64,000 nt of DNA. Source: Escherichia phage REP4. Under the pieces are notes generated by a model. That model was given only the letters and a program-made list of their open reading frames with translations, searched no databases and was not told the origin of the DNA. The stretch is taken from the sequence record OQ174503.1; one strand, written 5' to 3'. Numbering within the stretch: the stretch's first letter is position 1; the number at the start of each line of letters is the position of its first letter. Both the position numbers and the translations under genes were made by a program. Positions 32,104-36,038 of the stretch are shown piece after piece.

Positions 32104-32475
32104 TCACTCAAATTTAATGGCTTGAAGAAGACTAATAATTCTCAAGCGACTTCTTTCATCTTTAACTGTAAAAGAAAGAGGGTCGCCAGATTTCATAGTG
32201 ATAGTGCATTCAAAATCAAAATCTTCGGAAACTTCTTTGAAGAAGTCAAATTCTTCATCATAAATTAGAACACTACTCCGCAGACTATGAAGAACTTTTC
32301 CATCATTTCCAGATGCTGTACTAATCATTGTAACATTATGACCTTTCATATCTTCAACGATAAATTCACTAGTCAATATTACAGCATTAATAGAACTATT
32401 CCTATTACTAGCAGAAAGTAGATATTTCTGTTCTTCACCTTCACGAATGCGATATTTCTTACCAATTTTAAACAT
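32104..32475 (-). CDS. Hypothetical 123-aa protein
   Basis: ORF track; ATG start. Confidence 0.6.
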   Translation of the reverse strand: MFKIGKKYRIREGEEQKYLLSASNRNSSINAVILTSEFIVEDMKGHNVTMISTASGNDGKVLHSLRSSVLIYDEEFDFFKEVSEDFDFECTITMKSGDPLSFTVKDERSRLRIISLLQAIKFE

Positions 32476-32656: not shown

Positions 32657-33076
32657 TTATTCCTTAAAGTGTGCTTTCAACATCTGATACAAGGACCATG
32701 CCTGCTCATTATTTTCAATAATAACTTTCATGACAGGAAATTCGGTGAAATCTTCTATTTGTTCTTGCTCTTCCTGCTCTTGCTCTTCAGCTGCCTGATA
32801 TGGATTTTCCACTTCATCAAAGAACCCAGCTTCACTTTTTGAAAGCCAAATAAAGTCTTCATCCAAAACATCTTTGCCAGAAGATAGTACTAAATTTCCA
32901 GTAGATGACAAAATTTTAATAGGACGCCCAAGAGCGTCCACATCTAAAATTTTAAAAGGATACATACCTAAACGTCGCGCATAAATTCCGTTATCAGTAT
33001 GGTCTTTAATAAAATTTTCTTGAGCTTGTTTATTTTTAAATTGATACCATTTATTAACTTCAAATTTAATAGCCAT
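32657..33076 (-). CDS. Hypothetical 139-aa protein with acidic [10 protein letters not shown] tract (goF position by size)
   Basis: ORF track; ATG start. Confidence 0.6.
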
Positions 33077-33291
33077 TAATAAATTTCCTTCCAGTAAGTT
33101 GTGCCATCCTCAGTAATTTCACGAAATACACCGTAAATTGGTTGTTTATCACCAACCTTTTCATACACATAAACCGAAGTCAAGTGAGTAAACTTAACGG
33201 TATGTTCCTTTTGAACCACTACCAAATCTGGATCGAATAATACATCTTCAAATTCGTCATTAGTGCAGTTCTGAACAATTTTACGTTTCAT
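33076..33291 (-). CDS. Hypothetical 71-aa protein (cef position by size)
   Basis: ORF track; ATG overlaps downstream gene. Confidence 0.55.
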
Positions 33292-33304
33292 TACAATTTC
33301 CTCA

Positions 33305-33574
33305 TTAATTGAACAGTGGAGCGATGCGTTTCAGAAGAGTAGCAGCACCTTTGGCAAATTTTACATCATGAAAAACAGTTTCTTCTTCCGTTACAACACG
33401 AACTTTAATATTTTCACAATCCCAATTTTTACGAACAATCTTCAAAAGCTGCAGTAAATCTTTACATTCAGCAATATCGATAACACATCCACGAGAATCT
33501 TCCATTATCGCACGATAACCGTAAGCCAGACCATAATCGTTGAAAGATTGCTCGATGATAATTAAGTTTTCCAT
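33305..33574 (-). CDS. Hypothetical 89-aa protein
   Basis: ORF track start is TTG; ATG at MENLIIIEQSF. Confidence 0.55.
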   Translation of the reverse strand: MENLIIIEQSFNDYGLAYGYRAIMEDSRGCVIDIAECKDLLQLLKIVRKNWDCENIKVRVVTEEETVFHDVKFAKGAATLLKRIAPLFN

Positions 33575-33671
33575 TTTATTCTCCAAGTTGTTTTCTGTAT
33601 CAGTAGTTGATATTGATATAGTACCATAATCAACTACTGATGTATATAGTTTTATGAAAAAATTTTAAACT

Positions 33672-34169
33672 TTATGCACAGCGAGCTTTGCTATAGTGTT
33701 TAATCCAACTTTCAGGAATGACTTTGTATGTTCCTAAAAATACCGCGTTGTACAACTTAACGCCATCTTCTACCCATTGATCGGTAATGTATGCACACAT
33801 AGCACGAGTACGATGTTTTTGAACAATCCCTTCCTCATCTTCGGTAAATTCGAATTCATAAGGAGCAACGAACTTAATAGCCTGACCGAGTTTCCACTTA
33901 AAGTCTACACCTACATGCGAAGTATCAATCGTTTCAATTCCTTTAGCAGGAACAGCTTTCAAAAACGCAGACTCAAGAAATTTCGCACGAACATAGCCAA
34001 ACTGAGGTTTAGACTTTCCATCTTTAGGAATGATACGCACTTTTACTTCAGAATCTTCATCTTTAACGCCATGTTTAAGCTGAATGCTTACAATTTCGAC
34101 CAATTTTCCTGCTGCTTTAGAACGGGATTTATCAGATACACGAGCTAATTCACCAATATTAATAATCAT
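33672..34169 (-). CDS. Hypothetical 165-aa protein (motB position); paralog of 34246..34788
   Basis: ORF track; own early promoter; C-terminal motif AYITDQWVEDGVKLYNAVFLGTYKVIPES shared with neighbour. Confidence 0.65.
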   Translation of the reverse strand: MIINIGELARVSDKSRSKAAGKLVEIVSIQLKHGVKDEDSEVKVRIIPKDGKSKPQFGYVRAKFLESAFLKAVPAKGIETIDTSHVGVDFKWKLGQAIKFVAPYEFEFTEDEEGIVQKHRTRAMCAYITDQWVEDGVKLYNAVFLGTYKVIPESWIKHYSKARCA

Positions 34170-34213
34170 AGTTATCTCTCACTTGTTAAAAAGATTTTAT
34201 ACTCCACAGGACC

Positions 34214-34243
34214 ATTATACTCTGGTCCCAAGAGTTTGTAAAC
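34214..34243 (-). promoter_or_regulatory. Early promoter (GTTTAC, 18 nt, TATAAT)
   Basis: Minus-strand GTTTAC at 34238-34243 and TATAAT at 34214-34219. Confidence 0.65.
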
Positions 34244-34245
34244 TA

Positions 34246-34788
34246 TTAATTTAAAATAGCTACCACCGCACTACGAGGTACTACACTAAAATCACCTGCA
34301 TGAACAACGTTCAGAAGTTCAACACCATCTTCAATCCACTGGTCTGTTACCCAACCACAGACCGAAATAAATGGAGTCTTGATAGCTACAGCACGAGTTA
34401 GAAGGTCTGTAGGGTCTTGTTCTTCAACTTCTTGGAACAGGATGAACTCTGCCTCATAAACCAGGATTTTCTCTATTTTGTTATTGTCTAAACGACGACC
34501 GTGGACAATATAAGATTTAGTAAACCATTTACTTTTTTCAAAGTCTTCAACAGTAAATTCGCCTTCACCAAAAACATCAGTCAGAGTTTTATGGCCGGAA
34601 ATCAAGGCATTAGTTTTAATTTCAGGTTCAACCAGTTTGTAGGTTTTGCCGATTTCAATAGCGGTAGTCATAGTAGGTTCCTTAATTTCCAATGGTTTAA
34701 CAGGGCATACATAAGTGCTTACAACATCAAAATCAATCAGTTTAGCTACTGGATTTGGTGTGTATTCAGGATTATAATTAAATTTCAT
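34246..34788 (-). CDS. Hypothetical 180-aa protein; paralog of 33672..34169
   Basis: ORF track; C-terminal motif CGWVTDQWIEDGVELLNVVHAGDFSVVPRS. Confidence 0.65.
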   Translation of the reverse strand: MKFNYNPEYTPNPVAKLIDFDVVSTYVCPVKPLEIKEPTMTTAIEIGKTYKLVEPEIKTNALISGHKTLTDVFGEGEFTVEDFEKSKWFTKSYIVHGRRLDNNKIEKILVYEAEFILFQEVEEQDPTDLLTRAVAIKTPFISVCGWVTDQWIEDGVELLNVVHAGDFSVVPRSAVVAILN

Positions 34789-34790
34789 AA

Positions 34791-35291
34791 TTATCTCATT
34801 TCAATAAAATCTATGAGTTCAGCATGTGATTTGCGGAACATTACTTGGTGCACGCCAATGATAACTTCATCTTCAGGAACTTCGTATACAGCGAGATAAA
34901 ATCCTTTAGAAGATAATTCTTCCCGCTCTTCTCGTGTGAACCATCTCATCATATCATATTCACTAGCGAAAGCAAAATGATAAAGAGCTATAAACCATCC
35001 GGGAATATGATATTCTACTCCAACATAATCTTTCTTGAACTTAGTATTAATTACTATATTAGCGTTTTTAACTAATAGTTTATCTTCATGTGGTAAAGGA
35101 ATTCTTTTATTATTATCGCTATGATGCATAAAATTAGGTCTGTCATAACCTACGTGTAATAGCCACTCTTCGCTCCATGAATCGATTATACTCCTGTACG
35201 GCGTTATTTGAACACAAAGATTTCGACGTATTGTTATAGCATCTTCACAATCAAGAATACTAAACGATGATTCAACACGATAAATTTTCAT
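34791..35291 (-). CDS. Hypothetical 166-aa protein
   Basis: ORF track start is TTG inside promoter; ATG at MKIYRVESSF with RBS GAGGATAAT. Confidence 0.6.
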   Translation of the reverse strand: MKIYRVESSFSILDCEDAITIRRNLCVQITPYRSIIDSWSEEWLLHVGYDRPNFMHHSDNNKRIPLPHEDKLLVKNANIVINTKFKKDYVGVEYHIPGWFIALYHFAFASEYDMMRWFTREEREELSSKGFYLAVYEVPEDEVIIGVHQVMFRKSHAELIDFIEMR

Positions 35292-35318
35292 TTTATTATC
35301 CTCAGTAGCTATAGTGTT

Positions 35319-35348
35319 ATAATACCACAACTAACCGAGGAAGTAAAC
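35319..35348 (-). promoter_or_regulatory. Early promoter (GTTTAC, 18 nt, TATTAT)
   Basis: Minus-strand GTTTAC at 35343-35348. Confidence 0.6.
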
Positions 35349-35354
35349 AACTTT

Positions 35355-36038
35355 TTATCGTTTTGTTGGAAGAGACAGAGGATCGCACTCTTCCTCTGAC
35401 GGAGCATCTTCAAGACCCATAGCATATCGCAAAGCATACTTCATCATCAGGATGTCTTTCGCACAGTCATGAATAGAATCATGTGCAACGAATCCATCTA
35501 AAGTTCCCTTTGGAAGAGGACACGTGGTCATATCACGAACAAGAAGAAGTGCTTCAATTCTGGTACGAATATCACGCTGATTCCAGAATTTACATGGTTC
35601 TAACTTAAATGTGTCAAGTTCATTCTCAGAAACGCCATTAAGACGTTGAATATCGCGAATGAGATCGACTAAAATTGGAAAATCAAACGACATTCCACGG
35701 CACCAGCCTTGAGATTTCCAAGGATCGATGTTATGTGCATTGATGTAATCATTAAATTTTGCAATACCATCGATAGTGCTCACATCTTCATCTGATGGTG
35801 CAATATTTTTTCGAGCTTCGGGAGACTGATTTTTCCACCATTCGATAGTGCTTTTAGTAAAAAGACGATGTCCTTTTTGGCTTTTTAAATCAAACTTGAT
35901 TTTAATGCCGCGTGAAACTAATTCATCAAATGTTTCAACTACTTCTGGATTAGGGTCAAAGGCAATAACAGCCAAATCAATAACAGCTGCCTTTTCACCG
36001 CTTCCCATTGTTTCAAAATCTATAATAAAATCAAACAT
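35355..36038 (-). CDS. dexA: Exonuclease A (DnaQ-like 3-prime to 5-prime exonuclease) DexA, 227 aa
   Basis: ORF track; size as T4 DexA; DEDDh-type motifs (FDFETMG, DGFVAHDSIHDC). Confidence 0.88.
   Translation of the reverse strand: MFDFIIDFETMGSGEKAAVIDLAVIAFDPNPEVVETFDELVSRGIKIKFDLKSQKGHRLFTKSTIEWWKNQSPEARKNIAPSDEDVSTIDGIAKFNDYINAHNIDPWKSQGWCRGMSFDFPILVDLIRDIQRLNGVSENELDTFKLEPCKFWNQRDIRTRIEALLLVRDMTTCPLPKGTLDGFVAHDSIHDCAKDILMMKYALRYAMGLEDAPSEEECDPLSLPTKR

Follow-up and report, generated by a model that had tools for sequence, protein, structure and literature searches.

The question raised by two neighbouring genes of Escherichia phage REP4 (sequence record OQ174503.1; a stretch of 64,000 nucleotides (nt) was analysed, hereafter the window) is why one C-terminal block should stand behind two different N-termini. 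Their products have 165 and 180 amino acids (aa), and an original prediction, made from the letters of the DNA alone, described them as adjacent paralogous early genes of the region known as motB in phage T4. Produced early and in large amounts, T4 MotB binds DNA tightly and non-specifically, alters the footprint of H-NS, is toxic to E. coli and doubles the burst size (Patterson-West et al., 2018, PMC6070864; 2021, PMC7827196); with its DNA binding, H-NS remodelling and increased burst it is among the few T4 early 'takeover' proteins that have a measured effect. It has also been described that T4 MotB and MotB.1 share a conserved C-terminal domain, differ in their N-terminal regions and probably arose by gene duplication (Patterson-West et al., 2021, PMC7827196, section 3.2), and that two further categories of protein carry the same C-terminal domain behind other N-termini (PMC7827196). 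The observation of a shared domain is correct, but it is already known as the published motB/motB.1 relationship. What is added here is the extent of the domain as a whole barrel, the charge of its core, the exchange of an N-terminal cassette relative to T4, the narrow distribution of the family and a truncation in the T4 reference sequence. Our overall reading, to which we assign a probability of roughly 55%, is that the two gene products are two-barrel proteins in which KOW or LSm-like heads are mounted on a shared association barrel, and that they arose by duplication and exchange of heads.

Both open reading frames (ORFs) are present as predicted, and both lie on the minus strand, a point that had gone unmentioned (Table 1). 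The source genome is a Tequatrovirus (T4-like), and the 2.1 kb around the pair are 95-98% identical to many T4-like phages of Escherichia and Shigella. The gene order is that of T4 (39, 39.2, goF, cef, motB, motB.1, motB.2, dexA and dda, all on the minus strand), so that comparison with the T4 neighbours places the locus in the motB region, as had been proposed. The 165-aa protein is a full-length match to the Pfam family motB (PF17613; residues 1-163 of 165, 329.4 bits against a cut-off of 25) and matches the MotB-like PHROG 1671 with an E value of 6e-76; its gene lies between cef and motB.1/dexA and has its own early promoter. Compared with T4 MotB, which occupies the same map position behind the same promoter, residues 1-100 are identical save for one substitution, and the two proteins differ only in a hairpin at residues 101-121, including a three-residue insertion or deletion, and in the last five residues. 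At the DNA level, the patch 33810-33868 (minus strand) encodes this hairpin of the C-terminal barrel, and the rest of motB is about 97% identical to T4. The hairpin that differs from T4 may be a specificity loop. DNA binding, toxicity and the effects on the H-NS footprint have been established for T4 MotB alone, and are carried over to the 165-aa protein by likeness.

The 180-aa protein matches PHROG 2333 (E = 3e-85), to which the T4-type MotB.1 also belongs; its gene lies directly upstream of motB, its C-terminal core reads DPTDLL...GWVTDQWIEDGVELLNVVHAG, and a 141-aa version of it has been called 'MotB.1' in one source (phage PP01). Judged by sequence and map position, the 165-aa protein is MotB and the 180-aa protein is the motB.1-position product of a T4-like phage. 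Assignment of the 180-aa protein to MotB itself was considered and rejected, as PF17613 matches it at profile positions 120-153 only and no KOW-like N-terminal match is present. On the same sequence grounds, databases go too far in labelling it a 'MotB-like transcriptional regulator': the domain is shared, but the protein is not a MotB.

How strong is the similarity on which the comparison rests? The blocks first quoted are AYITDQWVEDGVKLYNAVFLGTYKVIPES (residues 126-154 of MotB) and GWVTDQWIEDGVELLNVVHAGDFSVVPRS (residues 145-173 of the 180-aa protein). The shortness of these blocks is the sole support for regarding the similarity as a chance or compositional match between unrelated AT-rich phage ORFs, and this explanation, to which we give a negligible probability, is refuted by the pairwise alignment that had been suggested as a check. 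With BLASTP, 16 of 32 aligned residues are identical and 24 of 32 are positive, without gaps (E = 4e-11, for a single comparison with a composition-adjusted matrix). Profile-profile alignment of the two families with hhalign gives a probability of 98.7% and an E value of 3.4e-16 over 38 columns, pairing residues 141-178 of the 180-aa protein with residues 122-159 of MotB. Curated Pfam and PHROG models also match both proteins, PF17613 reaching 34 bits at residues 142-175 of the 180-aa protein, above its 25-bit cut-off, and PHROG 1671 matching residues 123-178 at profile positions 91-160 (E = 7e-17). Outside the 38 C-terminal columns, hhalign aligned nothing between the two N-terminal halves. 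The genes are paralogous in the C-terminal domain only, in keeping with what had been claimed.

The claim of a shared block stood, but its extent of 29 aa did not; the real unit is a complete small barrel. The core signature of this barrel is G-(W/Y/F)-(V/I)-(T/S)-D-Q-W-(V/I)-E-D-G-V-x-L-x-N-V-V. Members from other genera join a MotB.1-type start (DPTDLL, followed by L-x-x-x-V-x-F/I-x-x-P) to the long beta-hairpin of the MotB type, and because such intermediate sequences combine the two forms, the homologous unit is the whole domain. On this sequence evidence, homology covers the entire barrel, whose length is about 55 aa where the hairpin is absent, as in MotB.1, and about 75 aa in MotB. A hidden Markov model of the domain, run over all six frames of the window, found these two copies alone, and no Pfam family other than motB matched the shared barrel at E values of up to 10.

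Structure prediction with AlphaFold2 (AF2) gives a small barrel for the shared domain, and it also gives a barrel for each N-terminal half: that of MotB is KOW-like, and that of the 180-aa protein is GoF/LSm-like. For MotB (28-sequence alignment, mean predicted local distance difference test score (pLDDT) 79.6) the model begins with a five-stranded barrel (residues 1-67), which a disordered linker (69-86) connects to the C-terminal barrel (90-165), with strands 97-112, 115-134, 137-144, 147-152 and, after a turn, 156-159 (pLDDT 83-94). The 180-aa protein (21 sequences, mean pLDDT 68.5) is modelled as a disordered tail (residues 1-41), a barrel with an inserted helix (44-120), and a five-stranded C-terminal barrel (126-180). 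In its head, strands are predicted at 49-52, 77-85, 92-99, 105-111 and 118-120 around a helix at 60-73 (pLDDT 75-87); in its C-terminal barrel, a helix at 126-131 precedes strands 133-137, 142-153, 156-163 and 166-171, a turn, and a final strand at 175-177. Each of the four predicted domains follows the SH3-like pattern: it has five strands, and a short helical turn separates the fourth from the fifth. The N-terminal halves, described as unrelated in the original prediction, are indeed so by sequence, but each is predicted to be an SH3-like small barrel, and this common fold is a matter of prediction only. According to these models, MotB and the 180-aa protein would each consist of two SH3-like small barrels on a flexible linker.

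The head of the 180-aa protein belongs to a recognisable group. Residues 44-125 match PHROG 622, the GoF family (E = 4e-6), and BLASTP relates the head to a 123-aa protein encoded at 32104-32475 (E = 4e-5). A direct BLASTP comparison with the GoF of the same window was not significant (E = 60); the link of the head to the GoF group is drawn because of the PHROG 622 match and the paralogue at the 39.1 position. The N-terminal domain of MotB.1 has been placed, together with GoF and Frd.2, in an LSm-like fold family (Kim et al., 2025, PMC12152347), and the head shows both the homology to the GoF group and the five predicted strands that go with this phage family (GoF, MotB.1, Frd.2). LSm-like proteins of the GoF, Frd.2 and 39.1 type resemble the N-terminal barrel of the 180-aa protein but have no MotB-type C-terminal barrel. 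The gene at the 39.1 position (32104-32475, minus strand) encodes a GoF-family (PHROG 622) protein of 123 aa, versus 65 aa for T4 39.1, and the N-terminal part of this protein is the closest paralogue of the 180-aa head in the window.

The residues of the disordered tail are conserved among homologues, and in variants of 245-250 aa they are read in frame behind an extra domain. An internal ATG (M40) is used as the start in some database records, which gives a protein of 141 aa; it is less likely to be the true start, judging from the sequence, given the conservation of residues 1-39 and their in-frame position after the extra domain of these longer variants. In about 12 representatives of the family, predicted disordered linkers just ahead of the C-terminal barrel contain the short conserved motif D-x-D-(V/I)-x-x-(M)-Y, after which comes a stretch rich in proline. 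In the 180-aa protein the corresponding D-x-D-V-x-x-x-Y motif sits in the N-terminal tail, and this is its single occurrence in the window.

What, then, might the shared barrel do? The original prediction saw in it a duplicated effector domain, and in the pair the diversification of a host-targeting protein, which is a conjecture. On the basis of HHpred searches, MotB was proposed in 2021 to consist of a KOW N-terminal domain and an OB-fold C-terminal domain of the cold-shock DNA-binding type (PMC7827196). If the shared domain were such an OB-fold-like nucleic-acid-binding domain, the heads would modulate its specificity or its partners; we regard this explanation as possible but rather doubtful. 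None of the four AF2 domains has the helix between strands 3 and 4 by which an OB fold is recognized. At the level of the fold there is resemblance to the SH3-like barrels of KOW, Tudor, chromo and PWWP domains (Spt5 KOW6-7, 5ohq; the 53BP1 tandem Tudor, 3lgf; the ERCC6L2 Tudor, 6hq9), with no sequence relationship. Searches by sequence for relatives of solved structure gave best E values of 0.5-0.8 with the single proteins and no matches with the domain profile, and no membership of a Pfam Tudor or KOW family was found by sequence.

The charge of the domain bears on the same issue. The MotB head is basic, with an isoelectric point (pI) of 9.75 and a net charge of +5. The 38-aa shared core has a net charge of 0 in this MotB and of -4 in the 180-aa protein, and of 20 family representatives that were scored, 19 have a core charge of between -1 and -6; the whole 180-aa protein has a pI of 4.8 and a net charge of -10. 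Polar positions that are invariant in the core carry D, E or N, next to an invariant W. Because the core is acidic or neutral and its invariant polar positions are of this kind, it is unlike a non-specific DNA-binding surface, and we read the shared barrel as an association module. The core is more likely a module for partner association or self-association than a DNA-binding surface. The DNA-binding surface of MotB would then be formed mainly by the basic KOW-like head, together with the basic flanks of the C-terminal domain. The contact made by the barrel could be self-association, association of MotB with MotB.1, or binding of a common host or phage partner. In this way, a common protein-interaction or self-association module could bring different nucleic-acid-binding heads, a KOW head for DNA and an LSm-like one possibly for RNA, to one and the same partner or assembly. 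The two genes may have originated by duplication followed by exchange of heads.

Several points weigh against this reading. The first concerns the argument from charge, which is indirect, as barrels of the KOW, Tudor, PWWP and LSm kinds are all capable of binding nucleic acids. The second is that the hairpin and the tail IKHYSKAR form basic flanks of the C-terminal domain in T4-type MotB, so that this domain may contribute to DNA binding. The third lies in the models, which are predictions and in which pLDDT drops to 57-70 where the MotB.1-type barrel begins. The fourth concerns the partner: MotB alters H-NS-dependent repression and the H-NS footprint (Patterson-West et al., PMC7827196), but a DNA-independent contact between MotB and H-NS was not detected by Patterson-West et al., and H-NS is therefore not an established direct partner. 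In this respect MotB differs from the H-NS counter-measures T7 gp5.5 and T4 Arn, which bind H-NS directly, while the association of MotB is DNA-dependent only; no similarity of sequence or fold to them was found. The last point is genetic. Deletion of T4 motB.1 leaves a wild-type burst size and latent period, and a T4 motB.1 amber mutant plates equally on suppressing and non-suppressing hosts (PMC12152347).

The exchange of heads is seen in the distribution of the domain and in the comparison with T4. Searching the domain profile against 1.84 billion representative proteins gave 34 matches at E values of up to 0.001, about 28 of which we read as true members; these have 100-251 aa, and the domain is C-terminal in them. 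The heads in front of the barrel are KOW, KOW joined to a MotB.1-type barrel, one GoF-like domain, or two GoF-like domains (in proteins of 245-251 aa). The three divergent representatives that were traced and the significant structural matches in BFVD come exclusively from T4-like phages, with hosts in the genera Escherichia, Shigella, Klebsiella, Yersinia, Edwardsiella, Kosakonia, Enterobacter and Serratia. The acidic, SH3-like barrel behind interchangeable heads provides a basis for dissecting head from barrel, but the general impact is small, since the basic finding is in print already and the family occurs in a narrow group of phages only. In the 245-251-aa relatives of the 180-aa protein the extra N-terminal domain stands in frame before tail, head and barrel, and the motB.1 locus thus exists in one-head and two-head forms. 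A metagenomic allele of 43 aa fuses the first 15 residues of MotB.2 to the last 28 of the MotB.1 barrel through an in-frame deletion that removes most of motB.2 and motB.1; a peptide of 29 aa from RB69, noted in 2021 (PMC7827196), may be a comparable case.

DNA identity to T4 is 90-98% through motB.2, is lost from 34803 to 34348, and returns from 34347 through the promoter and motB. From this loss, the exchanged cassette takes in tail and head as well as the first strand of the barrel. At the level of sequence, only the N-terminal cassette of motB.1 is exchanged relative to T4, with junctions at the motB.2/motB.1 boundary and in the GWVTDQW core. The T4 allele has no DNA similarity to the N-terminal 146 residues of the 180-aa protein, and the two proteins are 35% identical overall, nearly all of it C-terminal, so that they do not share the same N-terminal domain. 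As for the 180-aa protein, its head stands nearer to the 39.1-position/GoF family (PHROG 622), and its 43-residue, motif-bearing tail is absent from T4 MotB.1. This alternative N-terminus is among the kinds already catalogued in 2021 (PMC7827196; 'Category 2/4' proteins). The last 36 residues, by contrast, show only two differences from the re-sequenced T4 MotB.1.

Re-sequencing matters here, as the T4 reference carries a frameshift. In the reference motB.1 (AF158101/NC_000866, 7291-7650) there is one extra G after TDQWI (ATTGGAAGATGG versus ATTGAAGATGG), with the result that translation stops after TDQWIGRWR, at 119 aa, and the remainder of the barrel is out of frame. In all other listed T4, T4T, RB55 and RB59 records the match span is 1 nt shorter (560 versus 561 nt), and MT984581 encodes an intact MotB.1 of 143 aa. 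Neither PMC7827196 nor PMC12152347 mentions this frameshift. Kim et al. (2025, PMC12152347) worked with synthesized genes and gave MotB.1 as 13.8 kDa, which is the size of the truncated form. Because the T4 reference truncates MotB.1 inside the barrel, constructs designed from it may lack most of the conserved module.

Truncated or deleted forms, such as the T4 reference allele and the 43-aa fusion, raise the possibility that the 180-aa gene is a decaying or functionless duplicate, with a similarity kept by recombination or gene conversion, or by constrained DNA beside the motB promoter. The highly mosaic nature of the locus and the absence of a growth defect on loss of T4 motB.1 would fit this explanation. 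However, the last 36 codons differ from T4 motB.1 by ten synonymous changes and only two conservative non-synonymous ones, which argues for selection on the core protein, and on this comparison of sequences the shared core is under purifying selection. The cores of motB.1 and motB are only about 50% identical as protein and have therefore not been homogenized. Moreover, the N-terminal cassette of the type found in the window is intact in 349 phage records, and distant genera have retained the domain with different heads in front of it. Decay of the duplicate is accordingly very improbable in our view.

Beyond the two-barrel reading, a more specific mechanism can be put forward as a tentative suggestion that we consider less than likely to be right in full. 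The barrel would be an acidic, Tudor/KOW-like docking or self-association module, rather than an OB fold, that recruits interchangeable heads to one target in the host nucleoid or in phage transcription or replication. The linker motif would be a second, as yet undescribed interaction element, and the near-invariant DNA of the core would be a patch of homology for the swapping of heads. If docking of this kind takes place, MotB and MotB.1 would act on the same target, possibly as a hetero-oligomer, and the published experiments with the 13.8-kDa MotB.1 may have used a protein without most of the module.

Table 1. Position of the genes, protein domains and regulatory elements of the motB locus in the window.
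Feature	Position	Strand	Basis or remark
motB, 165 aa	33672..34169	-	T4 MotB orthologue: Pfam PF17613, PHROG 1671, T4 map position
MotB N-terminal barrel, residues 1-67 (KOW-like, basic)	33969..34169	-	
MotB C-terminal barrel, residues 90-165, with beta-hairpin insertion at about 101-121	33675..33902	-	AF2; aligned via intermediate sequences
Shared core in MotB, residues 122-159	33693..33806	-	hhalign aligned columns and BLASTP
motB.1-position gene, 180 aa	34246..34788	-	Disordered tail, GoF/LSm-like barrel and MotB-type C-terminal barrel
N-terminal tail of the 180-aa protein, residues 1-43, predicted disordered; motif LIDFDVVSTYVCPVKPLE at residues 17-34	34660..34788 (motif 34687-34740)	-	pLDDT 31-39
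GoF/LSm-like N-terminal barrel, residues 44-122	34423..34659	-	PHROG 622, BLASTP, AF2
MotB-type C-terminal barrel, residues 123-180, form without hairpin	34249..34422	-	AF2; PHROG 1671 at 123-178
Shared core in the 180-aa protein, residues 141-178	34255..34368	-	hhalign, BLASTP, Pfam motB at 142-175
Early-type promoter of motB, TTTACA-17-TATAAT	34214..34242	-	Top site of scan, 11/12
Stem-loop GGGACCA/UGGUCCU with outer stem, -10 hexamer of the motB promoter in the loop	34201..34235	-	Conserved in T4
Candidate early promoter before motB.2, TTTACT-17-TATTAT with upstream TG	35319..35347	-	Pattern match only

The promoters listed are pattern matches and not measured start sites. A recognizable early promoter was found for the 165-aa gene only, in agreement with the original prediction; it sits in the gap that separates the 180-aa gene's stop codon from the beginning of motB, is the best sigma-70-type match in 7.5 kb, is identical in T4, and fits the early consensus of the T4 group, TTTACW-N17-TAYWAT (quoted in PMC4122927). 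The 180-aa gene begins 2 nt past the stop codon of motB.2 and has no early-type site of its own. It had been suggested that this gene is read from further upstream, which holds, and that it starts right after the motB promoter, which does not: in the direction of transcription, it ends just before that promoter. The candidate promoter at 35347-35319 sits in the 63-nt gap between dexA and the motB.2 ATG at 35291, and, from its sequence, it is a candidate for the transcription of both motB.2 and motB.1. The start codon of the 180-aa gene is itself overlapped by a further pattern (ATGAGA-17-TATAAT, 34799-34771), which was rejected as a chance match, its -35 element being poor and the scan giving 25 sites versus a mean of 32.7 in shuffled sequence.

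RNA folding of the 98 nt at 34165-34262, around the motB promoter, gave -25.5 kcal/mol (z = -3.6). A consensus-fitting promoter with an overlapping stem-loop is reminiscent of the PeSL promoter/stem-loop cassettes of T4-type phages (Arbiol, 2010; Comeau, 2014). PeSL cassettes are a site of modular exchange, whereas the junction observed in this locus falls within the coding core and not at the promoter and stem-loop. No Rfam family was found in 33000-35500 at E values of up to 1.

Three plus-strand ORFs overlap the pair (33777-34148, 34084-34254 and 34501-34899); they have no PHROG match and were treated as antisense artefacts. The mechanically called ORF of motB.2 (34791-35330, minus strand; 179 aa) starts at a TTG and overlaps the candidate promoter, while related genomes annotate the ATG at 35291 (166 aa); its only Pfam hint is a sub-threshold match to an SRA domain (E = 0.095), which we do not trust. 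About 30 nt downstream of the motB stop codon, a perfect 13-bp inverted repeat forms a hairpin at 33599-33641 (minus strand; z = -3.5 for a fold of 99 nt) with no U-tract after it; possible roles of this hairpin are RNA processing, RNA stability or factor-dependent termination.

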